64,000 bases of DNA from Eubacteriales bacterium (GTDB taxonomy: Bacteria > Bacillota > Clostridia > Oscillospirales > JAAYXM01): assembly GCA_045586595.1 (NCBI GenBank), contig JAZNAQ010000022.1, forward strand, positions 1,605 to 65,604, in the 5' to 3' direction. Positions 34,209 through 63,186 of this stretch are shown one piece after another. Under the pieces are notes generated by a model. That model was not told the DNA's origin. It was given only the letters and a program-made list of their open reading frames with translations, and searched no databases. The first letter of the stretch is position 1, and the number at the start of each line of letters is the position of its first letter. A program made the translations under genes and the position numbers.

Positions 34209-34327
34209 CTGGACTGGCATAGTATAAAACCTTAGCCTCTTGGCTTTGCGTCGCCGACTTTCGCCGGTTTTGCCAAATGTTCAATTTTCACCAGTTTATC
34301 ACACTAAAGCATTTTTGTCAAACACTT

Positions 34328-41417: not shown

Positions 41418-42835
41418 CCTTCTTCTACCTCCTTGTAAAGATTTCTGTATTTGCCAAGCATTATCGCATATCGGTAATACTCATATGCTCTCTTTTTGGC
41501 AATTTCTCCCATTTTGAGTCTCAACTGTCTCGACTCACACATAACTTCCATTCGGTCAGCGAGCTTTTCTCTCTGCATAGGCGGAACGCAATATCCCGCT
41601 ACACCGAAAGTGTCTTCAGGGCTTCCTTCCAGTAGTTCCCTGCAACAACCGACATCGGTGGTTACGCACGGCCTTCCTGCGGCAAACGACTCGAGCACAG
41701 ACAGCGGCTGACCTTCAGAAATACTCGTAAGTATTGTAAAGTCAAGCTTTTCAAAATATTTGACAACATCAACTCTTCCCGGCATTATGACCTTGTCATC
41801 TATACCCAGCTGTGTAATCAGATCTCTGCATTCTGCCGCATATTCCTCGTCGTCCACGCCACCCATTATGTGCAATCTGACGTTATCCATTCGGGTAGAC
41901 AGCTCAAAAAAGGAATAGATCATCGTTTTGATATCCTTGATCGGCGCAAATCTGACAACTGCCCCGATATCAACATATCCGTCATCTTCTTTTAGCGGTA
42001 TGTCGCAGAATCGCTCATAGCTTATGCCGTTTTCTATAACATAGCATTTAGTCTCATCACAGCCCATTTCCACCTGCGTTGCCTTGGCACGCGTAAAAAG
42101 TGATGTAACACGAAACGCACGGCCATATATAAGGTCAGAAAGCATATAAAAGAATTTAACCCACTGACCTTTAAATGCCTTCTCAACCCATTTTGCTCTT
42201 ATTATTTCCTCTTCTCTTTCTCGGGTATATATGCCGTGTTCGGTCAAGAGAACAGGTTTTTTCTTGGCATATCCGCCAAGGCTTGCGAGCAACCCGCCGT
42301 ACCCGGTTGAAATAGCGTGATAGCAGTCCGCCTCAGGCACCTCTGCGCCCATAAGATACAAAACGGGCAAAAGTCTTGAGCGCACCGAATGGAACGCATC
42401 TGAAAAAGCGGTGTATGGAAACTCCGCTTTACATATTTCTATGAGAGTTTTCAAAAAGTGTTCACTCTTCAAATAGCTCATCGGGTTTATTTTCTTTGTA
42501 TGGTACATATTAAAGAGCAAATCCCAGTCGGGTTTGTCAGAAAAAACGAGTCGTCTGAGAGCCTCGTTTTCCTTTTCTGAAAAGGTATGGTTAAATACCT
42601 TGTTAGGTTTAACCTTCAGGGCATCATCAAGAAATACCTGACGCACTTCCACAACATTTTCGGGAAGCTTATATGCAAACTTGTCCTTATCCTCGGATTT
42701 TGCGCCGATAACCCAAAGAACAAATTCGTGTTCGGGCATCTCCGTTATATATTGGTGTGCCCAGGTGGACACGCCGCCGTTTATAAAAGGGTAACACCCT
42801 TCAAGAACCATACAAATTCTCATCGTTTTCACCAA
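41405..42835 (-). CDS. pelF: Pel glycosyltransferase PelF (GT4)
   Basis: 476 aa. EGCYPFINGGVSTW at the N-terminus and the GT4 E-x7-E region (SISEGQPLSVLESFAAGRP). Confidence 0.8.
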   Translation of the reverse strand: MVKTMRICMVLEGCYPFINGGVSTWAHQYITEMPEHEFVLWVIGAKSEDKDKFAYKLPENVVEVRQVFLDDALKVKPNKVFNHTFSEKENEALRRLVFSDKPDWDLLFNMYHTKKINPMSYLKSEHFLKTLIEICKAEFPYTAFSDAFHSVRSRLLPVLYLMGAEVPEADCYHAISTGYGGLLASLGGYAKKKPVLLTEHGIYTREREEEIIRAKWVEKAFKGQWVKFFYMLSDLIYGRAFRVTSLFTRAKATQVEMGCDETKCYVIENGISYERFCDIPLKEDDGYVDIGAVVRFAPIKDIKTMIYSFFELSTRMDNVRLHIMGGVDDEEYAAECRDLITQLGIDDKVIMPGRVDVVKYFEKLDFTILTSISEGQPLSVLESFAAGRPCVTTDVGCCRELLEGSPEDTFGVAGYCVPPMQREKLADRMEVMCESRQLRLKMGEIAKKRAYEYYRYAIMLGKYRNLYKEVEEGWQA

Positions 42836-42838
42836 ACA

Positions 42839-44689: not shown

Positions 44690-45564
44690 AATGCTATAGC
44701 CTCCTTCACTCGTCTGGAAACAAACATTTTCTTGGACTGTATGTCAGAAATAAGCGCTTTTATTTTATCGGCCTGCTTAAGCTGAGAATAGTATTTAAGC
44801 TTAAGCAAAATGATTTCTTCATAATCTCCGTATCGCTCATCTGCCTCTGCAAGTATCTTGCCTGCAATACTGTAATTCCCAAGTGCAAACTCATTTTCGA
44901 AGTAATGCATGTAGTCTTCAAATGTTTTTACGTATCCAAGCTTTTTTGAAATGAGCTGCGAATATAGGTTTCTGTTCATAACCTCAACCTGACCGGAGAG
45001 AAGCTTCTGCTCAAGCACCTCCCATAAAAAGTCGCAGTAGCTGGAAAGAACATTGATATCATCGGGGTTTTCTTCATATTGCTTGCTGAATCTTTGAAGG
45101 GCTTCATCGTTTTCATTTGAGATTTCAACCATTGCCGTAACAGCATAATGAACAACCTCAGGGTCCTCGTTGTTTCCCGCTTTTTGCAGAAATTCAACAT
45201 ATTCCGCCGGATTATCGTTAAGAACATCCATTATTATCTCGCGGCGGACTTTGGGGGAGTTTATAATAAGAGCTTCTTCGATTGCCACAAGCGAGTCATC
45301 GTTTTTCTTTTCTTCAACTGCTATACCCTTGTAAAGTGCAGAATCAAGTTTCATCTTCTGCACCCCTACCGCTATCGTGTCGTCTTTTTCAAACACTACC
45401 TGGAAATGAAGAAACATAACCGCCATAAATCCCCAGAAAGGAAGGCATAGCACCACAAAAAACATATATTTATGGACTTTTAGAAACTTAAACCGAGTAC
45501 CAAGGAACGTAAAAATGCATAAAAGGATATGTATGAAAATCAAAACAGCAGCCAAATAATTCAT
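44677..45564 (-). CDS. PelE-like membrane-anchored helical-repeat protein
   Basis: 295 aa with 2 N-terminal TM helices and a TPR-like helical region. Assignment rests mainly on position between pelD and the pelA-like gene. Confidence 0.45.
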   Translation of the reverse strand: MNYLAAVLIFIHILLCIFTFLGTRFKFLKVHKYMFFVVLCLPFWGFMAVMFLHFQVVFEKDDTIAVGVQKMKLDSALYKGIAVEEKKNDDSLVAIEEALIINSPKVRREIIMDVLNDNPAEYVEFLQKAGNNEDPEVVHYAVTAMVEISNENDEALQRFSKQYEENPDDINVLSSYCDFLWEVLEQKLLSGQVEVMNRNLYSQLISKKLGYVKTFEDYMHYFENEFALGNYSIAGKILAEADERYGDYEEIILLKLKYYSQLKQADKIKALISDIQSKKMFVSRRVKEAIAFWKD

Positions 45565-45578
45565 ACATACCCCTCCTT

Positions 45579-49255: not shown

Positions 49256-49789
49256 TTAGTCTTTGTAGTTAATTCCGCAGTTGATTGCCTTTAAGTTTAC
49301 TTCTAAAAGGTTTGCGCGCTTTGCAGAAACAACCTTCTTGAGTGAATCCTCAATATTGTCAGTTCTCATGCCGCTTTCCTTCATGAGCTTACCTGTGATA
49401 ATCATGTTTGCGAGCGTCGGTGCCTCCATAGCCTGTGCAAGCTGTGTTGCTGGGATATAGAACACCTTGACGTCGTCTCTCTTAACCTTGCGCTCGATAA
49501 GAGTTGAGTCAACGATAATCATACCGCCGGGTACAACTGCATCCTCATACTTATCAAGTGACGGAAGGTTCATTGCAACAAGAATATCGGGGTTTGAAAC
49601 AATGGGTGAGCCTACAGGGTCATCAGAGAGGATAACGCTGCAGTTTGCTGTGCCGCCGCGCATCTCCGGACCATAGGACGGAAGCCAGCTGAGCTGTTTT
49701 CCCTCAAGAAGGCCTTTATATGCAAGGAACTTACCCGCGAACAGGATGCCCTGGCCTCCAAAGCCCGCTAAAAGCAACTGTGTTGTCAT
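49256..49789 (-). CDS. 2-oxoacid:ferredoxin oxidoreductase, gamma subunit
   Basis: About 177 aa from [20 protein letters not shown]. That start is 2 nt after the beta stop, so the track ORF's 27-codon extension overlaps the beta subunit. Confidence 0.85.
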
Positions 49790-49791
49790 AA

Positions 49792-50544
49792 TTATGCTTC
49801 CTCCTTCTGTGCGCTCTTGTCTCTGTAAACACCGAGCGGATAGTATGGAATCATCTTCTCGTCTACCCACTTGAGAGCGTCATTCGGAGTCATACCCCAG
49901 TTTGTCGGGCAGGTAGAGACAACCTCGATAAGAGAGAATCCCTTTCCCTCAACCTGATTGCGAAACGCCTTGAGAATTGCCTTACCCGCAGCCTTTACAT
50001 TTTTAACGCTGTTTACTGCAACACGCTCAATATACTCAGGTCCGTCGAGAGTTGAGAGCATTTCGCTGACTCTTATCGGGTAGCCTGCTGTTGTTACATC
50101 ACGCCCGTACGGAGATGTCTGAGTTACCTGGCCGGGGAGTGATGTCGGGGCCATCTGGCCTCCGGTCATACCGTAGATTGCGTTATTTACAAATATAACG
50201 GTAATGTTTTCATTACGAGCTGCTGCGTGGACTGTCTCTGCCATACCGATTGAGGCAAGGTCTCCGTCGCCCTGATATGTAAAGATAACATTCTCAGGGA
50301 AAGCTCGCTTAAGGCCCGTTGCGACAGCCGGAGCACGGCCGTGAGCCGCCTCTACCATATCGCATGAAAAGTAATCATATGCCATAACAGAGCATCCGAC
50401 CGGTGCGACACCGATTGTCTTGCCCTCTACGCCGAGTGCGTCAATCGCCTCAGCAACAAGGCGGTGAATAATGCCGTGGGTGCAGCCCGGGCAGTAGTGA
50501 AGCGGTGCGTCTGTTAAGCTTTTCGGTTTTTCAAATACTACCAT
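49792..50544 (-). CDS. 2-oxoacid:ferredoxin oxidoreductase, beta (TPP-binding) subunit
   Basis: 250 aa with YCPGCTHG and the GDGD TPP motif. Confidence 0.88.
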   Translation of the reverse strand: MVVFEKPKSLTDAPLHYCPGCTHGIIHRLVAEAIDALGVEGKTIGVAPVGCSVMAYDYFSCDMVEAAHGRAPAVATGLKRAFPENVIFTYQGDGDLASIGMAETVHAAARNENITVIFVNNAIYGMTGGQMAPTSLPGQVTQTSPYGRDVTTAGYPIRVSEMLSTLDGPEYIERVAVNSVKNVKAAGKAILKAFRNQVEGKGFSLIEVVSTCPTNWGMTPNDALKWVDEKMIPYYPLGVYRDKSAQKEEA

Positions 50545-51605
50545 TAGTTGCTACCTCCCTTGACTTCTTTAATTTTTTCAAGAACCTGCTCAGGTGACGG
50601 AATCATGCCGCCGACGCGGTTACAGAGATGAACAGGCTTTTTGCAGTCTGTTGCAAGGCGGATGTCTTCAATCATCTGGCCCATTGAAAGCTCAACGCTG
50701 ATAAATGCCTGTACCTTATCTGCAGCCTCAGCAAGCGGTGCCTTCGGGAACGGCCATACGGTAATCGGGCGAATCATACCGACCTTTATACCCTCTTTTC
50801 GTGCTGCAACAACTGCGTTCTTTGCAACACGGGCAGCGATACCGAATGCGACAACACAGTACTCTGCATCATCCATCATAAAGCTTTCGTATCTTGCCTC
50901 TGTCTCTTCTATAAGCTTATATCTCTCATAGCGCTCGATATTCTTCTGCTCGAGCTCTTCAGGCTTTAAGTAGAGCGAGTTTATGATGTTATGCTCGCGC
51001 TTCATATCAGTTCCGGTTACTGCCCACGGCTTATCTGTTGTATTAACGCTTTCTTCAGGAAGCTCAACCGGCTCCATCATCTGCCCCATTGTGCCGTCTG
51101 CAAGAAGCATAGCAGGCATACGATATTTTTCGGCAAGCTCAAACGCAAGAGCTGTCATATCAGCCATTTCCTGAACGGATTCAGGTGTAAGGACTATCAT
51201 GCGATAGTCGCCGTGACCTCCGCCCTTTGTTGACTGGAAGTAGTCTGACTGAGACGGCTGGATGCCGCCGAGACCGGGGCCGCCGCGCTGTACGTTAACG
51301 ATAAGTGCCGGAAGGTCTGCACCTGCAATATAGGAGATACCCTCCTGCTTAAGCGAGATACCGGGGCTTGAGGAGGAGGTCATAACACGCTTGCCTGTAC
51401 CCGCAACTCCGTATACCATATTAATAGCCGAGATTTCACTCTCTGCCTGGAGGAATGTCCCCCCGATTTTCGGCATTCTCTTTGCCATGTATGCCGCAAC
51501 CTCTGTCTGCGGTGTTATCGGATAACCGAAGTAATGGCGACAGCCCGCACGGATAGCGGCTTCTGCGATTGCTTCGTTACCTTTCATCAAAACTTTTTCT
51601 GCCAT
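50544..51605 (-). CDS. 2-oxoacid:ferredoxin oxidoreductase, alpha subunit
   Basis: About 353 aa from MAEKVLMKGNEAIAEAA, with RBS GAGGTG 8 nt upstream. Typical VOR/KOR alpha N-terminus. Confidence 0.88.
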   Translation of the reverse strand: MAEKVLMKGNEAIAEAAIRAGCRHYFGYPITPQTEVAAYMAKRMPKIGGTFLQAESEISAINMVYGVAGTGKRVMTSSSSPGISLKQEGISYIAGADLPALIVNVQRGGPGLGGIQPSQSDYFQSTKGGGHGDYRMIVLTPESVQEMADMTALAFELAEKYRMPAMLLADGTMGQMMEPVELPEESVNTTDKPWAVTGTDMKREHNIINSLYLKPEELEQKNIERYERYKLIEETEARYESFMMDDAEYCVVAFGIAARVAKNAVVAARKEGIKVGMIRPITVWPFPKAPLAEAADKVQAFISVELSMGQMIEDIRLATDCKKPVHLCNRVGGMIPSPEQVLEKIKEVKGGSN

Positions 51606-51617
51606 TTTCCGCACACC

Positions 51618-51824
51618 TCACTTTTCTACCTTGATTACGCAGTCCGGGCACATAGTTGCACAGAATGCGCAAGCGATACATTTCTCCTGGTCGGTTATCT
51701 CCGCCGGAGAATGACCCTTTTTGTTGATTTTGTCTTTTGCAAGACGGATTATCCCCTTCGGACAAGCTGTAACACAAAGGCCACAACCCTTACAAATGTC
51801 CGAGTCGAATGTTACCTTAGCCAT
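51618..51824 (-). CDS. 2-oxoacid:ferredoxin oxidoreductase, delta subunit (2x[4Fe-4S] ferredoxin)
   Basis: 68 aa with two CxxCxxCxxxCP motifs. Confidence 0.88.
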   Translation of the reverse strand: MAKVTFDSDICKGCGLCVTACPKGIIRLAKDKINKKGHSPAEITDQEKCIACAFCATMCPDCVIKVEK

Positions 51825-51845: not shown

Positions 51846-52514
51846 TTAAAATAATTTTTCTTGTAATTTGAGTTTAAAGAAAGACGTATTTTGCGCCTGC
51901 TCGCAAAGATTCTTTTCTGATGTTGTCATAACAACGGGAACGCCGGATATTTCCGCAAGTTCTTCAGCAAATGCCAAGGTGTTCACAACATCGTCGATTG
52001 TCGTCTCGACCCCGATATTGGAGTTATTGACAATCCCCGTAAACGGAATCCCCGATGCTGTTTCTATCTCGCGAAAAACCTCAAGCGCTTCTTTTGCCGT
52101 ACGCGTAAGCGGGCGATAGAAGTTTACAACGAACAGGTTTGCAAAGTCGTTCTCTTCTAAAATATACGGACGGTATCTGCCAAGAGCATACGCACCGCGG
52201 TCATCGCCGCCTATGTCCATAACAACCCGGCGGTCTCTCCTCTGCACAAGGCCATAGACCTCCTGCGGAAGCGAGGGCAAATCTACGCTTGTGTTTGCAA
52301 ACGGTAGCGCAATAACCTCAACACCTGCATCGGTAAGCTCTTTTAAGCTATCCTTTGTGCGGAAATACGGATTTACAATATCAATATCAGCGATACTTAC
52401 GGGAAAACCTTTCTCGCTTAAGTGGAGCGCATAGTTTACCGCGATGTTGGTTTTGCCGCTGCCGTAGTGGCCGCAGAAAAGAGTAACTCTTTTATTTAAA
52501 GCGTGATTGTCCAA
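51846..52514 (-). CDS. MinD/CooC-like P-loop NTPase, function unknown
   Basis: 222 aa with a deviant Walker A (GHYGSGKTN). Embedded between ilvE and the delta subunit, overlapping ilvE by 19 nt. Confidence 0.5.
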   Translation of the reverse strand: MDNHALNKRVTLFCGHYGSGKTNIAVNYALHLSEKGFPVSIADIDIVNPYFRTKDSLKELTDAGVEVIALPFANTSVDLPSLPQEVYGLVQRRDRRVVMDIGGDDRGAYALGRYRPYILEENDFANLFVVNFYRPLTRTAKEALEVFREIETASGIPFTGIVNNSNIGVETTIDDVVNTLAFAEELAEISGVPVVMTTSEKNLCEQAQNTSFFKLKLQEKLF

Positions 52515-53563
52515 TTAAACTTATCCTCACACTTGCCCCACTGAATACCTGTGATGGTGTCATAGAGCTTCTGGCTGACCTCGCCTATTGTGTTGTTATT
52601 GATAAGCATAACATCGTCTTTATAACGAAGCTTACCAACCGGCGAGATTACGGCTGCCGTGCCTGTTCCGAAGCACTCTTCAAGCTTGCCGCTCTTCTGT
52701 GCATTTAAAAGCTCCTCAACGCTTATTTTGCGTTCCTCAACCTCATATCCCCAGGACTTACATACCTCAATTACCGAGTTTCTTGTGATACCCGGCAGAA
52801 TGCTGCCGGAGTGCTCCGGGGTTACGATTTTGCCGTCAATCTTAAAGAAGATGTTCATAGCACCGACTTCTTCGATGTACTTTCTCTCTACACCGTCAAG
52901 CCAGAGAACCTGTGAATAGCCCTCGTCGTGAGCCTTGACCTGAGCCGCAAGAGAAGCTGCGTAGTTACCGCCTGTCTTTGCAAAGCCCATACCGCCCTTG
53001 ACAGCGCGGACATAGTCGTCTTCAATCCAGATACCTACAGGAGCAAGGCCGCTTGCGTAATATGCGCCTGACGGAGAAAGGATGATGATAAAGAGATATG
53101 TCTTTGACGGTGCAACACCGAGGAACTCGTCTGTTGCGATGATAAACGGTCTTATGTAGAGCGATGTGCCGGGGGCTGTGGGTATCCAATCCTCATCAAC
53201 CTTGACAACTGCTTTACATGCCTCTACAAAAAGCTCCTCAGGAAGCTGAGGGATGCAAAGACGCTCGTTTGTGGCGTTTGTTCTCTTTGCGTTCATATCA
53301 GGTCTGAAAAGGCGAGCCTTTCCGTCACGTCCTCTGTATGCCTTAAGGCCTTCAAACATTTCCTGACCGTAGTGGAAAACCATTGCGGACGGGTCGAGAG
53401 AGAGCTTCTCATACGGGACTATTCTCCCGTCGTGCCAGCCTTTTCCCTCGGTATAGTTCATAACAAACATATGGTCTGTAAACACCTTGCCAAAGCCGAG
53501 CTTTGACTCATCTTCTGGTCGCTGTTTAGGATTTGTTGTTTTTGTTATCGGAAAATTATACAT
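52496..53563 (-). CDS. ilvE: Branched-chain amino acid aminotransferase
   Basis: 355 aa, fold-type IV PLP enzyme (long IlvE form) with motifs FEGLKAY, GGNYAASL and GITR. Confidence 0.9.
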   Translation of the reverse strand: MYNFPITKTTNPKQRPEDESKLGFGKVFTDHMFVMNYTEGKGWHDGRIVPYEKLSLDPSAMVFHYGQEMFEGLKAYRGRDGKARLFRPDMNAKRTNATNERLCIPQLPEELFVEACKAVVKVDEDWIPTAPGTSLYIRPFIIATDEFLGVAPSKTYLFIIILSPSGAYYASGLAPVGIWIEDDYVRAVKGGMGFAKTGGNYAASLAAQVKAHDEGYSQVLWLDGVERKYIEEVGAMNIFFKIDGKIVTPEHSGSILPGITRNSVIEVCKSWGYEVEERKISVEELLNAQKSGKLEECFGTGTAAVISPVGKLRYKDDVMLINNNTIGEVSQKLYDTITGIQWGKCEDKFNWTITL

Positions 53564-53588: not shown

Positions 53589-55877
53589 TCACAGCTTATT
53601 TCTCTGAATCTTTCCGCTTACTGTCTTGGGCAGCTCGTCACGGAATACGACGAGGCGCGGATATTTATACGGAGCTGTATGCTCTTTAACATAGTTCTGA
53701 ATCTCTTTCTTGAGTTCTTCTGTAGGCTCTGTGCCCTTTGTAAGAACGATACTTGCCTTTACTATCTGGCCGCGAACCTCATCAGGTGCTGCAGAAACGC
53801 CACACTCAAGGACGTACGGAAGCTCCATGATAACGCTTTCAATCTCAAACGGCCCGATGCGGTAGCCGGATGACTTGATAACGTCATCAACACGGCCGAC
53901 ATACCAATAGAAGCCGTCCTCATCACGCCATGCGGTATCTCCTGTGTGATAGTATCCGTCGTGGAGAACCTCAAGAGTTTTTTCCTCGTCGCGGTAGTAC
54001 TCAACAAAGAGGCCGCAGGGCTTGCCGTTCTTTACGTTAATTACGATTTCGCCGGTCTCACCGACAGCTACGGGCTCGCCTTTGTCATTTACAAGCTCAA
54101 CATTGTATATCGGAGCAGGCTTACCCATAGAACCAATTTTGTGCGGAGCACCTATCATGTTACCGATAATCATTGTGCTCTCTGTCTGGCCAAAGCCCTC
54201 AATTATCTGAAGGCCTGTTGCCTTTTCAAATTGCTTATAGACCTCGGGGTTTAAAGCCTCGCCCGCTGTTGACATATGCTTGACAGACGAGAAGTCATAC
54301 TGCGAAATATCTTCTTTAACAAGCATACGAAGCATTGTAGGCGGTGCGCAGAAGGTCGTGATGTTATGACGCGCAAACATCGGAAGAATTTCTTTCGCAT
54401 CAAAGCGGTCAAAGTCATAAACGAATATTGCCGCCTCGCAAAGCCACTGGCCGTAGAGCTTACCCCACATAGACTTTGCCCAGCCTGTATCTGAAATTGT
54501 GAAGTGTAGCCCATCAGGGTCAACATTGTGCCAATACTTTGCTGTATGGAAGTGACCGAGCGGATATTTATGGTTGTGTGCCGCAATCTTCGGGTATCCG
54601 GTAGTGCCGGATGTAAAGAACATCAGAAGCAAATCATCGCCGCACGGTGAATCATCGTTTCTTTCAAAGTGTGAGCTGTATAGCGGGTACTCGTCAGCAA
54701 AGCTTCTCCAACCCTCACGCTCGCCACCGACTATAATCTTATGTATAAGCTCAGGGCAGGTCTTTGCCGCCTCATCTACCTGTGCGGTACACTCTCCGTC
54801 TGCCGTGCAGAGGATTGTGTTTACGCCCGCCGCCTGAAAACGATACTCAAAGTCATGAACCTGAAGCTGGTTTGTGGCGGGGATAGCGATTGCGCCGAGC
54901 TTATTAAGACCAATCATAGCATACCAGAATTCGTAATGACGCTTCAGTACGAGCATAACTCTGTCGCCTTTTTTGATACCGAGTGACTTAAAGTAGTTTG
55001 CGCATCTTGCTGATTCACGCTTTACATCCTCAAAAGTAATGCGGCGTTCTACTTTATTCTTGTCGATATGAAGCATCGCAAGCTTATCAGGCTCGCGTTC
55101 TGCCAAAGCATCTACAAGGTCGAAAGCAAAGTTAAAGTTTTCGGTGTTTTTAAACTCAATCTTTGTAGGTGTTCCCTTTTCGTTCTCTTCAACAGAAATA
55201 TACTTACGGTAAATTCTGTCCTTAGTGTCACGCTTGACCTCGCGGGGATCGTCGATAGCTTTTATCGGAGTAAGCTCAGGAATGGGCTCACCTGACGGAT
55301 TCAAAACGATTGCATAGAAAACACAATCACGACCGTTTACGGCAATCATACCGTGTGGGGTATTACTGTCAAAGTAAATGCTGTCACCCGCGCGGAGAAC
55401 CTCGCGGTGCTCGCCTATCTGAACCATAAGCTCGCCCTCAACGACTATGTCACACTCCTGACCATCGTGAGTGGTAAGCTCAATATCGCGGTTTTGCGCG
55501 CTCTCATCATAAGCACATCTGACGTAGAGCGGCTCTGCGATTCTGTTCTGAAAAGCATATGCAAGGTTATAATATGTCATGCCATGAGCATTTGCTATTT
55601 CCTGCCCCAAACCGTTTCTTGTAACCGTAAACGATTTAAGAGTAGGGCTGTAGCCCTCAATAATATCTGTTACGTTAACACGCAATGCAAGCGCGCAACG
55701 GTAAAGGAATGCAAAGTTAAGGTCTTGCTTGCCTTCTTCACACAAAATATACTCTTCAACCGAAACATCGGTCTTTTCGGCCATCTCTGCCGGGGTCAAC
55801 CCCTCAATCTCACGAAGTTCGCGTATACGAGATGCCATCTCTTGAATTTTGTAGTCAAGTCCTGATATAGGTTGCAT
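53589..55877 (-). CDS. XRE-HTH + cupin + medium/short-chain acyl-CoA synthetase (AMP-forming) fusion, paralog 1 (behind the Val T-box)
   Basis: 762 aa from ATG 55877 (MQPISG..., RBS GAAAGGATGG). HTH (LTPAEMAEKTDVSVEEY), cupin (GDSIYFDSNTPHGMIA), then AMP-binding motifs FTSGTTGYPK, YHTGDTAWRDEDGFYWYVGRVDDVIKSSGYRIGPFEIE and SGKIQR. Confidence 0.85.
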   Translation of the reverse strand: MQPISGLDYKIQEMASRIRELREIEGLTPAEMAEKTDVSVEEYILCEEGKQDLNFAFLYRCALALRVNVTDIIEGYSPTLKSFTVTRNGLGQEIANAHGMTYYNLAYAFQNRIAEPLYVRCAYDESAQNRDIELTTHDGQECDIVVEGELMVQIGEHREVLRAGDSIYFDSNTPHGMIAVNGRDCVFYAIVLNPSGEPIPELTPIKAIDDPREVKRDTKDRIYRKYISVEENEKGTPTKIEFKNTENFNFAFDLVDALAEREPDKLAMLHIDKNKVERRITFEDVKRESARCANYFKSLGIKKGDRVMLVLKRHYEFWYAMIGLNKLGAIAIPATNQLQVHDFEYRFQAAGVNTILCTADGECTAQVDEAAKTCPELIHKIIVGGEREGWRSFADEYPLYSSHFERNDDSPCGDDLLLMFFTSGTTGYPKIAAHNHKYPLGHFHTAKYWHNVDPDGLHFTISDTGWAKSMWGKLYGQWLCEAAIFVYDFDRFDAKEILPMFARHNITTFCAPPTMLRMLVKEDISQYDFSSVKHMSTAGEALNPEVYKQFEKATGLQIIEGFGQTESTMIIGNMIGAPHKIGSMGKPAPIYNVELVNDKGEPVAVGETGEIVINVKNGKPCGLFVEYYRDEEKTLEVLHDGYYHTGDTAWRDEDGFYWYVGRVDDVIKSSGYRIGPFEIESVIMELPYVLECGVSAAPDEVRGQIVKASIVLTKGTEPTEELKKEIQNYVKEHTAPYKYPRLVVFRDELPKTVSGKIQRNKL

Positions 55878-55905: not shown

Positions 55906-56191
55906 AAAAAGCACTCGTCCCAAAGCTGATAATCTTTGAGACGAGTGTCAGAATTTCTAATACACCCGCGGTACCACTCAAATTGCGCTTTACGCGCCAC
56001 TCAGACTCAAACAAGCCGTATGCATTTACGCAGCAGTCACGGAAAGGTTCTACTCGCCTTATATAAGACTTTCTTCCTCTCAGCTCAGAAGCTACAGACA
56101 CAAGTAACAATGCCGATAGTTCACACCCACCACTATCTCTCTGAAGGACTGTACACTCACGCTCTCTTCGTCAACGCCTTTATATTCATTT
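55906..56191 (-). promoter_or_regulatory. T-box riboswitch, specifier GUA (Val)
   Basis: Promoter TTGACA (56226-56221), 17 nt spacer, TATAAT (56203-56198). Stem I has the GA motif UUGACGAAG, AGAGAG bulge and a GGUG distal loop. Specifier loop GUCU-GUA-G-CUUC (codon at plus 56093-56095). CCGUGA F-box. T-box UUUGAGUGGUACCGCGGG (55965-55984). Terminator CACUCGUC...GACGAGUG plus U5 (55906-55947). Confidence 0.85.
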
Positions 56192-56278: not shown

Positions 56279-58546
56279 TCAAAGTTTATTCCTCTGAATT
56301 TTACCGCTTATTGTCTTGGGGAGTTCATCACGGAATACAACAAGGCGCGGGTATTTATACGGCGCTGTATGCTCCTTGACGTAGTTCTGGATTTCTTTCT
56401 TAAGCTCTTCCGTCGGCTCCGTCCCCTTTGTAAGAACAATGCTTGCCTTTACAATCTGACCGCGGAGCTCATCGGGAGCTGCAGAAACGCCGCACTCGAG
56501 AACATACGGAAGCTCCATAATGACACTCTCAATCTCACACGGCCCGATGCGGTAACCGGATGATTTGATAACATCGTCAATTCGGCTGACATACCAGAAA
56601 TAGCCGTCCTCATCACGCCATGCGGTATCTTCTGTGTGGTACATTCCGCCACGCATACACTCTTCCATTTTTTCTTCATCATCAAGATACTGTCTGAAGA
56701 GGCCAACAGGAGTTCCGTTATCAAGGCGTACAACAATTTCACCGACCTCACCATTTGCAACCGGGTTGCCGTCGAGGTCAACAATATCAATATCATACTG
56801 CGGAGATGCCTTGCCCATTGCGCCTACGCGCGGAGTCGTACCATAGAGGTTTGCGATAACAAGGGTTGTTTCTGTTTGGCCGAAGCCCTCCATTATCTTA
56901 AGGCCTGTTGCCTTTTCAAATTGCTTATACACTTCGGGGTTGAGTGCCTCTCCTGCTGTTGTCATATGGTGGATGGAGGAAAGGTCGTATTTTGAAAGGT
57001 CTTCTTTTATGAACATACGAAGCATTGTTGGCGGCGCGCAGAAGGTTGTGATGTTGTATTTTGCAAACATCGGGAGAATTTCGTTTGCAGAAAAGCGGTC
57101 AAAGTCGTAAACGAATACTGCCCCCTCGCAGAGCCATTGGCCATAGAGCTTACCCCAGAGGGATTTGCCCCAGCCTGTGTCAGAGATTGTAAAGTGGAGC
57201 CCATCACGCTCGCAGCAGTGCCAGTATTTTGCAGTCACAAAGTGACCAAGGCCGTATGTGTGCTTATGCTCGACCATTTTCGGGTTACCTGTTGTTCCCG
57301 ACGAGAAGAACATAAGAGCCGCCTCATCGCCGCAGGGGGTATCATCGCTTCTGTCAAAGTGGCTTGAGAACATTGCATATTCGCTGTCAAAATCATGCCA
57401 GCCATCGCGATGACCGCCGACAAGTACAAGAGTTTTTACACTCGGGCATTTCTTTGCTGCAGCCTCTGCGATTGTAGCCGTATCATCATCAGCGGTGCAG
57501 ACAACAGCCTTTACGTTTGCCGCCTCATAGCGGTATACAAAGTCGTGGTCCTTAAGCTGATGTGTTGCAGGGATTGCAACAGCACCGAGCTTATGAAGCG
57601 CAACCATCGCAAACCAGAACTGATAATGGCGCTTGAGAACAAGCATTACGCGGTCACCCTGACCGATGCCGAGTGACTTGAAATAGTTTGCACATCGTGC
57701 CGATTCTTTTCTTATATCATCAAATGTAAAGCGGCGCTCAACCATGTTCTTGTCAACATGGAGCATCGCAAGCTTATCGGGAGTTTTCTTTGCAATTTCG
57801 TCGACAACATCGAAGCCGAAGTTGAATGTATCAGTATTCATAAACTCGATTTTTTCGAGTACGCCCGGCTCGCTCTCTGTACATTTTACAAACTTCTCAC
57901 ACGCGAGCTTTGTTGCCGGACGAAGAGATACAACGCTCTCGCGCACTTCTTCTTCCTTTGCATCCTCTCCAGGGAGAACTACTGCACAGAATACGCAGTC
58001 TTCACCGTTTACAGCTATCATACCGTGCGGTGTGGAGCTGTTATAGTAGATGCTGTCACCCTCGCTTAAAACTTCGGTGTGAGTGCCGACCTGAACCTTG
58101 AGCGAGCCCTTGAGAACGAGGTCAAACTCCTGCCCGCTATGCTTTGTAAGGTGTATCGGCTTATTCTGCTGCTCCTCAGAGTATTCATATCTTACCCAAT
58201 AGGGCTCAGCTATTTTGTTTTTAAACTTCGGGGCAAGGTTTGAAATGCTGATACCCTCCTCTTTAGCCGTCTCCTGCCCCTTGCCCTTACGAGTTACGGT
58301 GTAAGAGGAAAGATGCGCCGTGCGGCCCTCCAAAAGTTCTGTAAGCTCAATACCAAAGGCAAGCGCGCATTTGTGAAGAAACGAGAACGGCATATCCGCC
58401 GCACCGTTTTCGAACTTTTTGTATTCATCAAGTGTTACTTCGGTTTTCTCTGCCATCTGGTTTGCAGTCATACCCATAACCTCACGCATCTCACGGATGC
58501 GGGCTGCAACCTCGCCGAGTTGTGTCATAGTTTTTTCTGTGCTCAT
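56279..58546 (-). CDS. XRE-HTH + cupin + acyl-CoA synthetase (AMP-forming) fusion, paralog 2 (behind the Ile T-box)
   Basis: 755 aa from ATG 58546 (MSTEKT..., RBS AAAGGAG). Same architecture as paralog 1, with the C-terminal ~85 aa nearly identical. Confidence 0.85.
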   Translation of the reverse strand: MSTEKTMTQLGEVAARIREMREVMGMTANQMAEKTEVTLDEYKKFENGAADMPFSFLHKCALAFGIELTELLEGRTAHLSSYTVTRKGKGQETAKEEGISISNLAPKFKNKIAEPYWVRYEYSEEQQNKPIHLTKHSGQEFDLVLKGSLKVQVGTHTEVLSEGDSIYYNSSTPHGMIAVNGEDCVFCAVVLPGEDAKEEEVRESVVSLRPATKLACEKFVKCTESEPGVLEKIEFMNTDTFNFGFDVVDEIAKKTPDKLAMLHVDKNMVERRFTFDDIRKESARCANYFKSLGIGQGDRVMLVLKRHYQFWFAMVALHKLGAVAIPATHQLKDHDFVYRYEAANVKAVVCTADDDTATIAEAAAKKCPSVKTLVLVGGHRDGWHDFDSEYAMFSSHFDRSDDTPCGDEAALMFFSSGTTGNPKMVEHKHTYGLGHFVTAKYWHCCERDGLHFTISDTGWGKSLWGKLYGQWLCEGAVFVYDFDRFSANEILPMFAKYNITTFCAPPTMLRMFIKEDLSKYDLSSIHHMTTAGEALNPEVYKQFEKATGLKIMEGFGQTETTLVIANLYGTTPRVGAMGKASPQYDIDIVDLDGNPVANGEVGEIVVRLDNGTPVGLFRQYLDDEEKMEECMRGGMYHTEDTAWRDEDGYFWYVSRIDDVIKSSGYRIGPCEIESVIMELPYVLECGVSAAPDELRGQIVKASIVLTKGTEPTEELKKEIQNYVKEHTAPYKYPRLVVFRDELPKTISGKIQRNKL

Positions 58547-58597
58547 TGCATTTTCTCCTTTCAAATTAAAAACCTTAAAATTTTTAATTGAATAACA

Positions 58598-58879
58598 AAG
58601 ACTCGTCTCAAAGCTTTTATACTTTGAGACGAGCCGAATAAACTATATCCGATACCCGCGGTACCACTCAAATTGCGCTTTACGCGCCACTCAGGCTCAA
58701 ACAAGCCTTATGCATTAACGCAGCAATCACGGAAAGCGTCTACTCGTCAAATCAAACTTTCGGGCTTCCAGCTCAGAAGTGATAGGCAAAAAACATTTCG
58801 CTACCGGGATTACACCGTCCCCGACTCTCTGTAAGCTACCTTGCTTTTCCGTCTTCGTCATAGCCTTTGCTATTCAATT
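58598..58879 (-). promoter_or_regulatory. T-box riboswitch, specifier AUC (Ile)
   Basis: Promoter TTGACA (58914-58909), 17 nt spacer, TAAACT (58891-58886). Stem I has AUGACGAAG, AGAGAG and a GGUGUAA distal loop. Specifier loop GCCU-AUC-A-CUUC (plus 58781-58783). T-box UUUGAGUGGUACCGCGGG (58655-58674). Terminator GGCUCGUCUCAAAG...CUUUGAGACGAGUC plus U run (58598-58635). Confidence 0.85.
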
Positions 58880-58924: not shown

Positions 58925-61384
58925 TTATTTTTTAAGACCAAGAATTTTCTCTGATTCCTCACGCATTTTATATTTAAGAATCTTACCCGCGGCGTTCATT
59001 GGGAACTCATTGACAAACAAGAAATATCTCGGCACCTTATGGCGCGCGATAGACGCGTTTCCGAACTCGCGCATCTCTGCCTCGTCGGAGGTTTCGCCCT
59101 TATGGAGAATAATCCACGCGCAACATTCCTCACCGTAACGCTCATCGGGAACTCCTACAATCTGAACATCTCGTATCTTCGGATTTGTCAGGTAGAACTC
59201 CTCAATTTCACGCGGATAGAGGTTTTCGCCACCGCGGATAATCATGTCCTTAAGTCGGCCTGTTACCTTATAATATCCGTCAGGCGTACGGCAACAAATA
59301 TCACCGGAGTGAAGCCAGCCGTCAGCATCAATAGTCTGTGCTGTTGCGTTGGGCATTTTGTAGTAGCCCTTCATTATGTTAAAGCCTCGCGCAACAAACT
59401 CGCCGCTCTCACCGTCAGGAAGCTCCTCACCCGTTTCAGGATCAATGACCTTACACTCAACACCCGGGAAAGCACTTCCGACAGTCTCGACCCTGTGGTC
59501 GAGGTCTTCATTAACCTCTCCCATGGTACAGCCGGGAGAAGCCTCAGTCTGGCCGTAAACGGAGATAATCTCGCGCATATTCATCTCAACAGAGGCACGG
59601 CGCATAAGGTCAGCAGGGCAGTTTGCTCCCGCCATGATGCCCGTACGCATATATGAAAAATCTGTCTTTTCAAAGTCAGGGTGGTTAAACATTGCGATAA
59701 ACATAGTAGGAACACCGTTAAAGCATGTGATATGCTCATCGTTAACGCACGCAAGTGACGATTTCGGTGAGAAGTACGGCATCGGGCAAAGCGTGCCGCC
59801 GTGAGTCATCATTGACGTCATCGAAAGCACCATTCCGAAGCAGTGGAACATCGGCACCTGAATCATCATTCGATCGGCAGTGGAAAGGTCCATCCTGTCA
59901 CCGATTGTCTTGCCGTTGTTTACAATATTTCTGTGTGTGAGCATAACGCCCTTCGGGAAACCGGTTGTACCTGAGGTGTATTGCATATTACATACATCGT
60001 CAGGCTTTACCATTGATGCACGACGGCGTACCTCCTCCTTCGGAACAAGTGCCGCGCGGTCAAGCATCTGCCCCCATGTAAGACAGCCGTGCATAGAGAA
60101 GCCAGCAGTAACAACATTGCGTAAAAACGGCAACTTTTTTGAGTAAAGCGCATCGCCCGGCTTCATATTTTCAAGCTCGGGGCAAAGCTCCTGGATGATT
60201 TCGCGGTAGTTTATATCCTTGCAGTCCTCAATCATAACAAGTGTATGGGTGTCAGACTGCTTTAGCAGATACTCAATCTCGTGGATTTTATATGCTGTAT
60301 TAACTGTTACAAGAACTGCCCCTATTTTAGTTGTTGCCCAGAAGGTTATGAACCACTGAGGAACATTTGTAGCCCATACTGCAACATGGTCGCCCGCTTT
60401 TACGCCGAGCGAAATAAGCGCCGCAGCGCACTCGTCGACATCACGCCGAAACTGTGAATATGTCCTTGTATAGTCGAGCGTAGTATACTTAAACGCATAC
60501 TGGTCAGGATAAGTCTCCGCCATGGTATCAAGCACCTGCGAGAAGGTCTTATCTATAACATCATACTTTTTCCATACAAATGTGCCTGTTCCCGCACGGT
60601 TATAATACAACTTATCATACTCTTTCTTCTCGCGTGAAAGGTTTGCAATATAGTTTGCAAAATGAGTAAGAACGATGTCTGCATCATTTATCTCGTCATT
60701 CCATGCAACCGATACAAAGCCGTCGAAGTTAAGAGACGAAAGTGCGTTTATAAACTCGGTTACAGGAAGAGAGCCTTCACCGATGAGGACGTTTTGTCCG
60801 TCCTTCTTATCGCCGAGGCGTACATACTTAATATATGCGCCAAGGTTTGTAATTGTTTTCTCCGCGCTCTCGCCTGCGCCGAAGTATGTTTCGCGGACAT
60901 TCCATGACGCGCCAACTACTGCAGAAGAAAAGAAATTGATAATATCAATGACATTCTCGGTTGCAGAGAGGTGTCCTGCAGTTTCAAGAAGAATCTGAAT
61001 ATCTGTTTCTTCAGCGCGTTTGATTGCCGGAGCGAGCTTTTTTGAAAGTTCTTCGTTTGACATTTTCTCCTCTATCCTGAGGATAATGCGCTCAACACCG
61101 GCGCTTGAAGCCATATTGACATATTTGAGTATTTCATCTGCGCTTGCATAATCACTTCCTGCATCATGAGGATATACAAGAGCGGATACCTCAAGCCCGC
61201 GATTTACGAGTTTTCTCTTTGCATCGGCCACTCTGTCACTGCGGAGAATGCTGTCGTAGTGCTTCTTTCTTTCACCAAGAGCGTCATAAATCTCAAACCC
61301 CGAATAACCGTAGTCATATGCATAACGACACATATCGAGAAACGACGGGCGGTTTACATTTTTTGTCGAAAAGGTAAGCTTCAT
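58925..61384 (-). CDS. Xylose-isomerase-like TIM-barrel domain fused to a FadD-type AMP-forming acyl-CoA ligase
   Basis: 819 aa from ATG 61384 (MKLTFSTK; RBS GAGGAGGA lies inside the upstream gene's end). The N-terminal ~260 aa are AP-endonuclease-2/sugar-isomerase-like. The C-terminal part carries YTSGTTGFPKGV, YGQTE, GWLHSGD and RGGENLYPREIE. Confidence 0.75.
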   Translation of the reverse strand: MKLTFSTKNVNRPSFLDMCRYAYDYGYSGFEIYDALGERKKHYDSILRSDRVADAKRKLVNRGLEVSALVYPHDAGSDYASADEILKYVNMASSAGVERIILRIEEKMSNEELSKKLAPAIKRAEETDIQILLETAGHLSATENVIDIINFFSSAVVGASWNVRETYFGAGESAEKTITNLGAYIKYVRLGDKKDGQNVLIGEGSLPVTEFINALSSLNFDGFVSVAWNDEINDADIVLTHFANYIANLSREKKEYDKLYYNRAGTGTFVWKKYDVIDKTFSQVLDTMAETYPDQYAFKYTTLDYTRTYSQFRRDVDECAAALISLGVKAGDHVAVWATNVPQWFITFWATTKIGAVLVTVNTAYKIHEIEYLLKQSDTHTLVMIEDCKDINYREIIQELCPELENMKPGDALYSKKLPFLRNVVTAGFSMHGCLTWGQMLDRAALVPKEEVRRRASMVKPDDVCNMQYTSGTTGFPKGVMLTHRNIVNNGKTIGDRMDLSTADRMMIQVPMFHCFGMVLSMTSMMTHGGTLCPMPYFSPKSSLACVNDEHITCFNGVPTMFIAMFNHPDFEKTDFSYMRTGIMAGANCPADLMRRASVEMNMREIISVYGQTEASPGCTMGEVNEDLDHRVETVGSAFPGVECKVIDPETGEELPDGESGEFVARGFNIMKGYYKMPNATAQTIDADGWLHSGDICCRTPDGYYKVTGRLKDMIIRGGENLYPREIEEFYLTNPKIRDVQIVGVPDERYGEECCAWIILHKGETSDEAEMREFGNASIARHKVPRYFLFVNEFPMNAAGKILKYKMREESEKILGLKK

Positions 61385-61385: not shown

Positions 61386-62774
61386 TTAATCCTCCTCAAA
61401 CACTATCTTATTCAGCGCGTTGATATACGCTCTGATGCTTGCTGCCACAATATCAGTAGAGATTCCGTTGCCGGAATAGAGTTTTCCATCCACGCGAAGC
61501 TTTACAACAGCCGAGCCAAGAGCCTCCTTGCCCTCAGTAACGGCATGGATCTGGAAATCGTCAAGCTCATAGTGATAGCCTATGCACTGTTCTATTGCAC
61601 GAAATGCTGAGTCTACAGCGCCGTCACCCATACTTACGCCGCAGAGAATTTCGTCACCGCACTTGAGCGTAACCTGTGACATGGCACTTGTGAGATTGCC
61701 GCAGTTTGTGGTGTAGCTCTCAAGGTGATATGTTGACGGTGCCTGCATGGCAGAGCTTGCTATAAGTGCCTCAAGCTCCTTCGCGCCGACTGTGCTCTTC
61801 TTCTCGCATACCTGCACAAGAGCACGGTATACATTTCCGTTATCCTCATCGGAAAGGTCATATCCGAGAACCTTTGCAGCCTGTGCAACATCTGAAAGCG
61901 TACTGTCGCAATCAAGAACGATTTTTTTCTTCTCACTTGCAGCATCTGCGCTCTCGTAAGCATCATGATTTATCTTTCGGAGCATCTCATCTACACTTGA
62001 ATGTATCTGGGTAGCTACAATAGAAGTGGATATGCCGAGAGCTTCGCCTCTTGCGCTTATTGCGTCAGAGAGCTCGCCTACAGACAAAACATTCTTTCCT
62101 GCCATCGCACACTTAAGCCCGTCAGCCCCTGCCTTTACCGCAGCAATAGCAGTTGCAACAGCCATATTGATACTGTCGGATACCTGAACATATACCGATG
62201 TGTTTACCTGAGCCTTTATTGCAGCGGTAAGCTCTGCAATCTCCTCAGGAAGTGAAACTCCGGCGTCGTCGCAGATAGTTACGATTCCTGCGCCGCTTGC
62301 CTCAGCCGCTTTAACTGCATTAATAATGAAGTCACGGTCTGCACGAGTTGCATCAAGTGCAACAAATTCGACATCGGGGCAGAATTTCTTTGCCTCGGCT
62401 ACAAGCTCTTCAATCTTTGTAAGCATCTTATCTGCCTTGAGATGATATATATACTCCATCTGCACCGTAGAAGTAGGGAGGGCTACCTGAAGGCGCGGCT
62501 TTGCTGCATCTTTTATACACTCCCATGCGACAGACACCTCGTCTGCCGTAAAGCCGACAGGGAGAGCGACTGCGCTGCTTTTAACGTTTGATGCAATCGT
62601 TTTATAAATAATTGTATCCTCGCGAACATTCTTTATTGGCGCAAGCTCAACAGCATCCGCACCGAGAGAATCTGCACACGCCGCTATAGCTGTTTTCTCT
62701 CTGAAGAGCAGTGAAACCTCACGGTCTTGTGAAAGCTCCTTTAACGTGATGTCAGTAACTAAAATTTTCTTCAT
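61386..62774 (-). CDS. 2-isopropylmalate synthase (LeuA) homolog lacking the catalytic and metal-binding residues but retaining the C-terminal LeuA regulatory domain
   Basis: 462 aa, collinear with recalled B. subtilis LeuA. DTTLRDGEQ is replaced by DITLKELSQ, HCHDD by QVSDS, and GIGERAGN by GKNVLSVG. The C-terminus (TEGKEALGSAVVKL...GISTDIVAASIRAYINALNKI) matches the LeuA_dimer domain. Confidence 0.7.
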   Translation of the reverse strand: MKKILVTDITLKELSQDREVSLLFREKTAIAACADSLGADAVELAPIKNVREDTIIYKTIASNVKSSAVALPVGFTADEVSVAWECIKDAAKPRLQVALPTSTVQMEYIYHLKADKMLTKIEELVAEAKKFCPDVEFVALDATRADRDFIINAVKAAEASGAGIVTICDDAGVSLPEEIAELTAAIKAQVNTSVYVQVSDSINMAVATAIAAVKAGADGLKCAMAGKNVLSVGELSDAISARGEALGISTSIVATQIHSSVDEMLRKINHDAYESADAASEKKKIVLDCDSTLSDVAQAAKVLGYDLSDEDNGNVYRALVQVCEKKSTVGAKELEALIASSAMQAPSTYHLESYTTNCGNLTSAMSQVTLKCGDEILCGVSMGDGAVDSAFRAIEQCIGYHYELDDFQIHAVTEGKEALGSAVVKLRVDGKLYSGNGISTDIVAASIRAYINALNKIVFEED

Positions 62775-62820
62775 AGGTAAAACCCCTTTCTCTGCAATTT
62801 AAATTTTCAGATGTTCGACA

Positions 62821-63127
62821 AAAACGCTTTCATCTCTTTGTTATCCTTTAATAACTCAAAGAGACGAAAGCGTTAAAACTCAAGTATTTAAACCTTTCGC
62901 GGTACCACTCTTTTTCATCCTACGGCGAGGATGCACCTCAGGTGCTGACACACCTTGACTCTGTTACGGGAGCTCCCGTCCGCCCCTACTCTCTTTCAAT
63001 TTCACGGCAGCCGCTCCGTGGTGAGTTCAACGAGGCTAACCCAATGCCTTGCACCAACCGGCATCTCTCTGCGCGGGTATAAGCTTTTCGCATACTATTC
63101 CACATCATCGCGTTTGTTTTCAATTTG
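62821..63127 (-). promoter_or_regulatory. T-box riboswitch, specifier CUC (Leu)
   Basis: Promoter TTGACA (63162-63157), 17 nt spacer, TATAAT (63139-63134). Stem I has GCGAUGAUGUGG, the AGUA S-turn, AGAGAG and a GGUGCAA distal loop. Textbook specifier loop GAA-CUC-A-CCAC (plus 63023-63025). T-box AGAGUGGUACCGCGAAAGG (62896-62912). Terminator AACGCUUUC...GAAAGCGUU plus U4 (62821-62874). Confidence 0.9.
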
Positions 63128-63186
63128 GTAAACATTATATCACTGCATTTTTTGTTTGTCAACAGTTTTCAAAAAATTTTATTAAC

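Follow-up and report, generated by a model that had tools for sequence, protein, structure and literature searches.

A LeuA paralog without catalytic residues, paired with a TIM-barrel/acyl-CoA ligase fusion in a leucine T-box unit of Clostridia, as a candidate leucine sensor

The gene considered here encodes a degenerate paralog of 2-isopropylmalate synthase (LeuA or IPMS) and lies in a 64,000-nucleotide stretch of an Eubacteriales genome of the order Oscillospirales (assembly GCA_045586595.1, contig JAZNAQ010000022.1, positions 1,605 to 65,604), the whole of which we call the window; all features of the window described below are on its minus strand. The gene (61386..62774) is a real open reading frame (ORF) that starts with ATG and specifies 462 amino acids and a stop codon. 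Its product has the barrel fold of LeuA, matching the Pfam HMGL-like profile (PF00682) over residues 6-226 with 100.1 bits against a cut-off of 29, and also its allosteric domain, matching LeuA_dimer (PF08502) over residues 331-457 with 106.6 bits, an almost full-length match that covers profile positions 4-130 of 131. Along the chain we distinguish a degenerate HMGL-like/DRE-TIM barrel (aa 1-250; 62025..62774), a short, weakly conserved linker (aa 251-296; 61887..62024) that occupies the place of the LeuA accessory subdomain I with its HxSGIHQDG motif, a retained accessory subdomain II (aa 297-345; 61740..61886) of the form LGYDLS.ED..VY...ELEALIA, and the LeuA regulatory (LeuA_dimer) domain (aa 346-462; 61389..61739), the last of which is the most conserved part of the protein and contains the loop G383-D-G-A-V-D-S389 (61608..61628). 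The gene is followed by that of an 819-aa fusion of a TIM barrel with an acyl-CoA ligase (58925..61384; hereinafter TIM-ligase), which is recognized by matches to the Pfam AP_endonuc_2 (51 bits), AMP-binding (321 bits) and AMP-binding_C (51 bits) profiles and to a PRK12583-like NCBIfam model (665 bits) as well as by synteny. Its xylose-isomerase-like TIM domain comprises approximately aa 1-250 (60635..61384) and its AMP-forming ligase domain approximately aa 282-819 (58925..60541). The junction between the two genes reads TTT GAG GAG GAT TAA G ATG on the minus strand, i.e. the stop codon (61386-61388) and the ATG at 61384 are separated by 1 nt, and the ribosome-binding site of the TIM-ligase gene, GAGGAGGA (61390..61397), lies within the last three sense codons (E-E-D) of the LeuA-like gene. 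A first-pass annotation of this DNA had described a 462-aa protein collinear with LeuA, encoded by the first gene of a leucine T-box unit, with a 1-nt gap to the next start codon and the ribosome-binding site of the next gene in its last codons; the ORF and both Pfam alignments, the RF00230 leader with a CUC specifier directly upstream and the junction sequence agree with each of these statements.

To define what the LeuA-like protein has retained we aligned it with the LeuA catalytic domains of solved structures (3ewb, 3rmj, 3eeg) and with bona fide LeuA sequences. The DTTLRDGEQ motif of LeuA is DITLKELSQ in the window protein, with K12, E13, L14 and S15 replacing R, D, G and E, and HCH(D/N)D is QVSDS, with Q197 and S199 replacing HxH. 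Hence, the positions of the metal ligands (the Asp of the RDGxQ motif and HxH) hold E13, Q197 and S199, and the position of the 2-oxoacid-binding arginine (R80 in Mycobacterium tuberculosis) holds K12. Both substitutions had been pointed out in the first-pass annotation in support of a LeuA paralog that lacks its catalytic apparatus, and the alignment bears them out, as it does this conclusion, which extends to the entire family described below. The same annotation had also read GIGERAGN as replaced by GKNVLSVG; this block is indeed degenerate, but the alignment itself differs in that NGIGERAGNASL of LeuA corresponds to AG----KNVLSV, the GxGERxGN loop thus having suffered a 4-residue deletion. 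Two changes had escaped notice there: the catalytic glutamate of the (E)DA(T)R strand (E218 in M. tuberculosis LeuA) is Leu140, and the accessory subdomain I (NAFxHESGIHQDG...YEI..P..VG, about 35-45 aa) has been wholly deleted, leaving positions ~274-318 of the NCBIfam LeuA model unmatched. The six other family members that we aligned with four bona fide LeuAs all share this deletion. The catalytic His379 of M. tuberculosis LeuA lies in subdomain I, which closes the active site. With respect to the point substitutions, R80K and E218A of the M. tuberculosis enzyme are grouped among the activity-destroying changes in a review table (PMC10464499).

An AlphaFold model of the LeuA-like protein (pLDDT 88.7, with low confidence at residues 271-281 of the linker) superposes in a Foldseek search on the barrel of Listeria LeuA (3ewb) with an rmsd of 1.6 Å over 275 columns, indicating that the register of the alignment is sound, and also matches full-length M. 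tuberculosis LeuA (E ~1e-21). We considered whether the catalytic residues might be present at shifted positions. This is ruled out, as the profile and structural alignments have the same register and the barrel (residues 1-250), read directly from the sequence, contains a single histidine (H111), making a displaced two-histidine metal site impossible. Further, the best score with an NCBIfam LeuA equivalog model is 256 bits against a cut-off of 532 (NF002086), and TIGR00973 gives 239.8 against 598.7. Judged from sequence and predicted structure, the protein lacks the defining catalytic features of LeuA, shares with it only the fold and the regulatory half, and is not to be filed as an isopropylmalate synthase.

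This protein belongs to a large family. A word-indexed search recovered 120 proteins with 72-91% identity, all of about 462 aa; the named matches are all labelled "hypothetical protein" and come from Oscillospiraceae, Ruminococcaceae or Clostridia metagenome-assembled genomes. An exhaustive search of the representatives of 50%-identity clusters brought in over 100 additional clusters, with proteins of 455-480 aa that align end to end at identities down to about 30%; ordinary LeuAs of 500-516 aa rank after them. A scan of GTDB species representatives yielded 80 loci with 52-76% identity, all from Clostridia (Acutalibacteraceae, Oscillospiraceae, Christensenellaceae and Lachnospiraceae) and mostly from the guts of ruminants and other animals, and a metagenome scan seeded with a distant family member gave 80 more. 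Of about 105 cluster representatives, not one has HxH or a full RDGEQ, and the GERAGN-loop deletion is common to them all; likewise, neither R-D-x-E nor HxH occurs in any of the 156 genomic members (0/156 for each). In these 156 the former arginine column holds K in 87, R in 47 and C in 8, the former aspartate column holds K, E or Q, and the former Glu218 column holds L in 92, while the remaining columns of the GERAGN loop vary across the family. Such free variation at precisely the catalytic columns is what would be expected of a site no longer under selection. Some longer LeuA-like representatives of 503-511 aa (P0251 and P0265) keep a GERAGN-type loop, with Cys in place of the substrate arginine and HSQ or RAY in place of HxH; these may be further LeuA paralogs that have partly degenerated, or else intermediates.

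Conservation is unevenly distributed along the protein. In a close and a distant set of loci, respectively, identity to the window protein is 79.0% and 59.9% in the regulatory domain, 73.6% and 47.4% in subdomain II, 63.5% and 38.8% in the barrel and 47.9% and 15.5% in the linker that replaces subdomain I. The regulatory domain, which had been called well preserved at first pass, is thus not only a strong LeuA_dimer match but also the most conserved region in both sets, and its GDGP[IV]D[AS] loop is nearly invariant across the family. A phmmer comparison of the single C-terminal domain sequence with solved structures gave no match, and a family profile was needed to reach them. This profile matches the regulatory domain of Leptospira citramalate synthase (3f6g, E 2e-5), aligning the loop to GDGGYDA; it reaches 1sr9 and 3fig weakly, and in a weak match (E 0.61) aligns the loop to GNGPLAA of M. 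tuberculosis LeuA. We take the segment so aligned to be the effector-binding loop and the site of feedback-resistant mutations. On the barrel, the residues D8, T10, E43, S102, E107, Y108, K113, D141, R144 and D169 of the former active-site face are invariant across the family. Most of the invariant barrel residues are common to true LeuA, and these may be inherited residues of the fold and its interaction network. Since synonymous sites are saturated at protein identities of 70-75%, purifying selection was judged from family conservation; on this measure, the family is under purifying selection yet lacks catalytic residues, as is the case for pseudoenzymes of the HisZ type discussed below.

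The second constant feature of these loci is the partner gene. A TIM-ligase gene directly follows the LeuA-like gene in 81 of the 81 close loci. Among the distant loci it does so wherever the sequence extends far enough downstream to tell, and this includes loci whose LeuA-like proteins share no more than 35-47% identity with that of the window. The spacing from stop to start in 140 loci is exactly 1 nt in 62, an overlap in 28 and at most 9 nt in 126, which bears out translational coupling of the two genes. In the loci seen the LeuA-like gene is never beside leuBCD. Thus, the LeuA-like gene is in obligate genomic association with a catalytic partner, a pairing seen from the side of the LeuA-like loci, as a search with the TIM domain returned almost only fragments at contig ends. 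The three parts of the pair differ in their divergence from the window: the ligase domain is about 90% identical in the close set and 64-73% in the distant set, the LeuA-like protein about 67-73% and 35-47%, and the TIM domain about 65% and 25-34%. The conservation of the ligase domain (58925..60541 and its homologs), at about 90% across different families of Clostridia, is unusual in itself.

The model of the TIM domain (pLDDT 90.7) has its nearest structural neighbors, with about 15% identity, among the ketose and sugar-phosphate 3-epimerases, which belong to the xylose-isomerase-like superfamily. In distant members the canonical metal-binding and catalytic residues are kept at the positions equivalent to 134, 162, 164/165, 187, 189, 192 and 227 of the window protein, the commonest patterns being E/K, D, H, H, H, H, D, E, and canonical Glu-Asp-His-Glu ligands of the epimerase type are found in distant lineages (e.g. 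loci L082, L106, L133 and L142). The clade of the window has E134, N162, R164, G/E165, Y187, R189, D192 and A227 instead. By comparison of these positions, the TIM domain of this clade has lost most of the canonical site, and whatever catalytic role the domain may have had appears to be gone from part of the family. With the catalytic residues of the LeuA-like protein also gone, the ligase is the only part of the module that keeps a canonical catalytic site in the window clade.

The pair is preceded in the window by all the elements of a leucine-responsive T-box unit. A promoter-like site of the sigma-70 type (63134..63162), in which TTGACA and TATAAT are separated by a 17-nt spacer and accompanied by a TG extension (12/12 matches), lies ahead of a T-box leader (62857..63117) that matches Rfam RF00230 over the full model (1-219) with 107 bits against a gathering score of 93 (E 2.6e-23). 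According to the Rfam alignment and the sequence, its specifier is the leucine codon CUC (63023..63025) in the context GAA-CUC-A. The leader ends in an intrinsic terminator (62817..62874), a long hairpin followed by UUUUUGU, with a folding energy of -30.1 kcal/mol and a z-score of -5.9, none of 200 shuffled sequences folding as well. Leucine-specific T-box control of this unit is conserved in its relatives: about 55 close loci have a homologous leader with GAA-CUC-A/G, a CUG taking the place of CUC in one, and the specifier is CUC or CUG in 8/8 distant leaders aligned by cmscan. The distant specifiers were read from the cmscan alignments; a GAA-CTN-R regular expression failed on these leaders. 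The Rfam gathering threshold missed the leaders of several relatives, some of which were recovered by nhmmer or by eye; the T-box of L029 passes the Rfam threshold, and those of L039 and L081 are readable by eye. Four loci (L004, L005, L006 and L008) have instead of a T-box a short leader ORF in which Leu and Ile codons abound (MNMQSFFTANILLLIAIIILAI...), and after it a terminator formed by a GC-rich hairpin and a run of T; in L004 the leader-peptide region is at ~5750..5990, upstream of the LeuA-like gene. The form of this leader suggests a classical leader-peptide attenuator of the same operon. Hence, two different RNA mechanisms, T-box and leader peptide, appear to report the same signal to the same genes.

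Downstream of the TIM-ligase gene the window contains two more units of similar design. The second T-box (58622..58870; 79.8 bits, E 6.5e-17), with a specifier read as AUC (Ile), precedes a gene for a fusion of an XRE-type helix-turn-helix (HTH) domain, a cupin and an MbcS-like acyl-CoA ligase, recognized by its domain matches (56279..58564), and the third (55934..56183; 79.6 bits, E 7.2e-17), with a specifier read as GUA (Val), precedes a second such HTH-cupin-ligase fusion, whose start was taken as the first ATG after the T-box (53589..55877). Both of these T-boxes, at about 80 bits, fall below the gathering score of 93 and were detected by an E-value threshold. Thus, the window has three T-boxes in a row on one strand, one each for Leu, Ile and Val, and each before an acyl-CoA ligase gene. 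The HTH-cupin fusions suggest that each branched-chain ligase may carry its own sensor or regulator module. These units are followed by genes for a branched-chain amino acid aminotransferase (BCAT; 52496..53563; NCBIfam NF009897, 514.5 bits against a cut-off of 307), a conserved P-loop NTPase of the MinD/Mrp type (51846..52514), a 68-aa VorD-like protein with two [4Fe-4S] clusters (51618..51824) and the alpha (50544..51614; VorB model, 564.6 bits against a cut-off of 399), beta (49792..50544) and gamma (49256..49870) subunits of a VOR-type 2-oxoacid:ferredoxin oxidoreductase. The cluster of the window therefore includes both the VOR subunits and the transaminase of a branched-chain pathway. 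In other loci the LeuA-like/TIM-ligase pair is linked to BCAT in 24 cases, to VOR subunits in 14-17 and to HTH-cupin ligases in 41, and in L004-L008 the leader, the LeuA-like gene, TIM-ligase, BCAT, NTPase and VOR follow one another in this order on one strand; most loci have the module without adjacent VOR genes. The P-loop NTPase accompanies VOR in 16 other loci. Elsewhere in the window there are a c-di-GMP-I riboswitch (34201..34284; 62.5 bits) upstream of an ORF at 32702..34096 and, nearby, an HD-domain protein and Pel-like exopolysaccharide genes (PelG, DUF2194 and a DUF3492-glycosyltransferase; 39957..48359); L082 also has a c-di-GMP-I riboswitch near its LeuA-like gene.

A pointer to the substrates of the three ligases comes from Staphylococcus aureus MbcS, which uses 2-methylbutyrate and isobutyrate but hardly isovalerate (PMC10026030). 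This preference fits the presence of MbcS-like ligases behind the Ile and Val T-boxes and of a ligase of another class behind the Leu T-box. Taken together, the cluster looks like a pathway by which branched-chain fatty acids are turned into branched-chain amino acids. The first-pass annotation had noted neither this setting nor the loss of metal ligands from the TIM domain nor the invariant residues on the barrel. That rumen bacteria make leucine, isoleucine and valine by reductive carboxylation, from isovalerate, 2-methylbutyrate and isobutyrate respectively, is classical physiology. Such carboxylation of branched-chain acids in rumen bacteria is also touched on in PMC7356843. Given the leucine specificity of the T-box, the gene neighborhood and the poor use of isovalerate by MbcS-type enzymes, we infer that the TIM-ligase activates isovalerate.

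We accordingly entertain, as the reading that we favor though with slightly less than even confidence, that the LeuA-like pseudoenzyme is the leucine-sensing partner of an isovalerate-CoA ligase and provides allosteric feedback on top of the T-box; a leucine-sensing subunit of the ligase had also been the hypothesis of the first-pass annotation. Leucine sensing by a LeuA-like protein would fit its pairing with the ligase, the better conservation of its regulatory domain than of any other part, and the logic of the pathway. We infer from sequence and gene context that it binds leucine, that it forms a physical complex with the TIM-ligase and that the effect of leucine is inhibitory. In the mechanism that we propose, uncharged tRNA-Leu would switch the operon on through the T-box, and translational coupling would lead to synthesis of the LeuA-like protein and the TIM-ligase in fixed proportion, most likely as a complex. 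The ligase would most likely convert isovalerate to isovaleryl-CoA, the VOR-type oxidoreductase would then form 2-oxoisocaproate from it by reductive carboxylation, and the neighboring BCAT would convert 2-oxoisocaproate to leucine. As the oxidoreductase and the transaminase are common to all three amino acids, the ligase would be the only leucine-specific and ATP-consuming step of this branch, and thus the logical point for end-product control. The LeuA barrel would have been kept as a scaffold, together with subdomain II and a leucine-binding regulatory domain; the dead LeuA, probably a dimer via its regulatory domains as in LeuA, would bind the TIM-ligase and transmit to it the occupancy of the leucine site. 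Leucine bound at the dimer of regulatory domains would then damp the ligase, adding a fast feedback to the slower control by the T-box.

Several observations weigh against this proposal. The Ile and Val ligases of the same cluster work without a LeuA-like partner, and upstream of the LeuA-like gene in L078 and L079 neither a T-box nor a leader peptide is recognizable. The invariant old active-site face may leave room for a ligand or partner site, or for residual chemistry, on the barrel, and the Glu-Asp-His-Glu site of the distant TIM domains implies that the module may include a second enzymatic step. It might accordingly be supposed that the protein is still an enzyme or half of one, in which what is left of the barrel mouth, by itself or jointly with the partner's TIM domain, acts on a leucine precursor in a reaction that needs no metal or binds it through other ligands. 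The invariant residues from D8 to D169 that line the old active-site face would suit this, as would the epimerase-like tetrad of the distant TIM domains and their nearness in fold to ketose and sugar-phosphate 3-epimerases. However, most of the invariant barrel residues are those of true LeuA, probably inherited with its fold and network, the positions used for chemistry by every DRE-TIM enzyme vary freely in the family, subdomain I with its role in active-site closure is deleted, and the metal ligands of the TIM domain have also been lost in the window clade; we hold a new active site to be improbable. The effector of a regulatory subunit could, by analogy with the homologous domains, which differ in specificity, also be a molecule related to leucine, such as 2-oxoisocaproate, isovalerate, isoleucine or valine. 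The citramalate synthase domain binds isoleucine, and it is the regulatory domain of that enzyme (3f6g) which is the best match of the C-terminal profile among solved structures. Against this, the leucine specificity of the RNA control extends from the window to each of the homologous leaders aligned and to all eight of the distant ones that were read, and the C-terminal half matches the NCBIfam LeuA models rather than the citramalate synthase model, so that another effector appears to be a slim prospect, slighter still than a new active site.

A role as a structural or assembly subunit without any leucine sensing is also unlikely in our estimate, though it deserves more consideration than the preceding two. 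The LeuA-like protein would here be a scaffold that stabilizes the TIM-ligase or docks it to VOR for channelling of isovaleryl-CoA, and its C-terminal domain would serve in dimerization or docking alone. Obligate pairing and translational coupling would suit such a subunit, the frequent linkage to VOR and BCAT would be accounted for, LeuA_dimer is by its Pfam description also a dimerization domain, and the TIM domain of the window clade, likewise devoid of catalytic ligands, would fit a structural role of the non-ligase parts in general. Nevertheless, conservation is strictest in the glycine-rich loops, which the alignments match to the presumed effector loops in LeuA and citramalate synthase and which a pure interface does not need, and in most loci no VOR genes are adjacent to the module. 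Lastly, the loss of every catalytic motif might suggest a decaying pseudogene or an annotation artefact. This has next to no probability and is refuted by comparison across the family. More than 150 loci, and more than 100 of the 50%-identity clusters, have an intact ORF of unvarying length, conservation is strong in the C-terminal half and extends to the ribosome-binding site and the translational coupling, and the structural model is confident.

If the leucine-sensing reading is placed in its wider setting, gut and rumen Clostridia would have a dedicated, feedback-controlled entry from isovalerate to leucine, in which a dead-LeuA sensor and a partly degenerate epimerase-like TIM adaptor form an allosteric machine around an isovalerate-CoA ligase, providing a second, independent case of the HisZ principle; we put this forward with somewhat more reserve than the sensing role itself. 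Branched-chain fatty acids are growth factors for fibre-degrading bacteria of the rumen and gut, and their reductive carboxylation to leucine, isoleucine and valine has been known physiologically for decades, whereas its genes and control are poorly defined. The locus offers a testable gene set for this route, with three amino-acid-specific ligases, each behind its own T-box, and a shared oxidoreductase and transaminase. If our reading is true, the classical reductive-carboxylation route would for the first time be defined at the level of genes, each branched-chain amino acid having its own T-box, and the locus further suggests that flux into the leucine branch could be controlled at its only specific step by a recycled LeuA regulatory module. 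A full-text literature search found no description of the LeuA-like family, of the cluster with its three T-boxes, of a dead LeuA paralog or of T-box control of isovalerate activation, and nothing relevant on reductive carboxylation of isovaleryl-CoA; nor did it turn up a gene-level account of that route in which each amino acid has its own T-box and a pseudo-LeuA belongs to the leucine branch. There is also a consequence for annotation: domain searches see LeuA in these proteins, yet they are no isopropylmalate synthases, and a metabolic reconstruction in which they count as leuA would wrongly infer leucine prototrophy by way of the isopropylmalate pathway, a misannotation that concerns at least 80 species-level genomes and probably more. 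With regard to protein evolution, the family is a clean and widespread example of an enzyme that became a presumed sensor.

Several known systems help to place this family. With the short bacterial form of LeuA, which belongs to the superfamily of DRE-TIM metallolyases, it shares the barrel fold, subdomain II and a LeuA_dimer domain with glycine-rich loops, as well as leucine-responsive control, which is found in many leuA genes. Unlike LeuA, it is devoid of the Asp/His/His metal site, the substrate arginine, the catalytic glutamate, the GERAGN loop and subdomain I; the window protein scores less than half of the NCBIfam LeuA cut-offs, and its gene stands beside a TIM-ligase fusion and not, in any locus seen, beside leuBCD. 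A closer parallel in logic is HisZ-HisG, in which HisZ, an inactive paralog of histidyl-tRNA synthetase, makes the ATP phosphoribosyltransferase HisG sensitive to histidine. In both cases a dead paralog of an amino-acid-recognizing enzyme is, or in the present family would be, the allosteric, end-product-sensing subunit of the first committed enzyme in the pathway to that amino acid; the folds are unrelated, and the HisZ-HisG complex and its inhibition by histidine are experimentally established, whereas the complex and leucine effect of the present family are putative. The methylthioalkylmalate (MAM) and isobutylmalate (IBMS) synthases of plants are likewise LeuA-derived paralogs that were recruited to a new role by loss of a module, but they are the mirror image of the present family: they kept catalysis and lost the regulatory domain, while the LeuA-like proteins kept the regulatory domain and lost catalysis. 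S. aureus MbcS (PMC10026030) resembles the system in the ATP-dependent activation of exogenous branched short-chain acids, and the Ile and Val units encode MbcS-like ligases; by contrast, the ligase of the Leu unit falls in another, PRK12583-like group and has an N-terminal TIM barrel and a LeuA-like partner, and MbcS feeds fatty-acid synthesis, whereas the context in the window, with VOR, BCAT and T-boxes, points to amino-acid synthesis. In this last respect the cluster is most like the reductive carboxylation of rumen bacteria, for which it has the needed acid-CoA ligases, a VOR-type oxidoreductase with its ferredoxin subunit and a transaminase.

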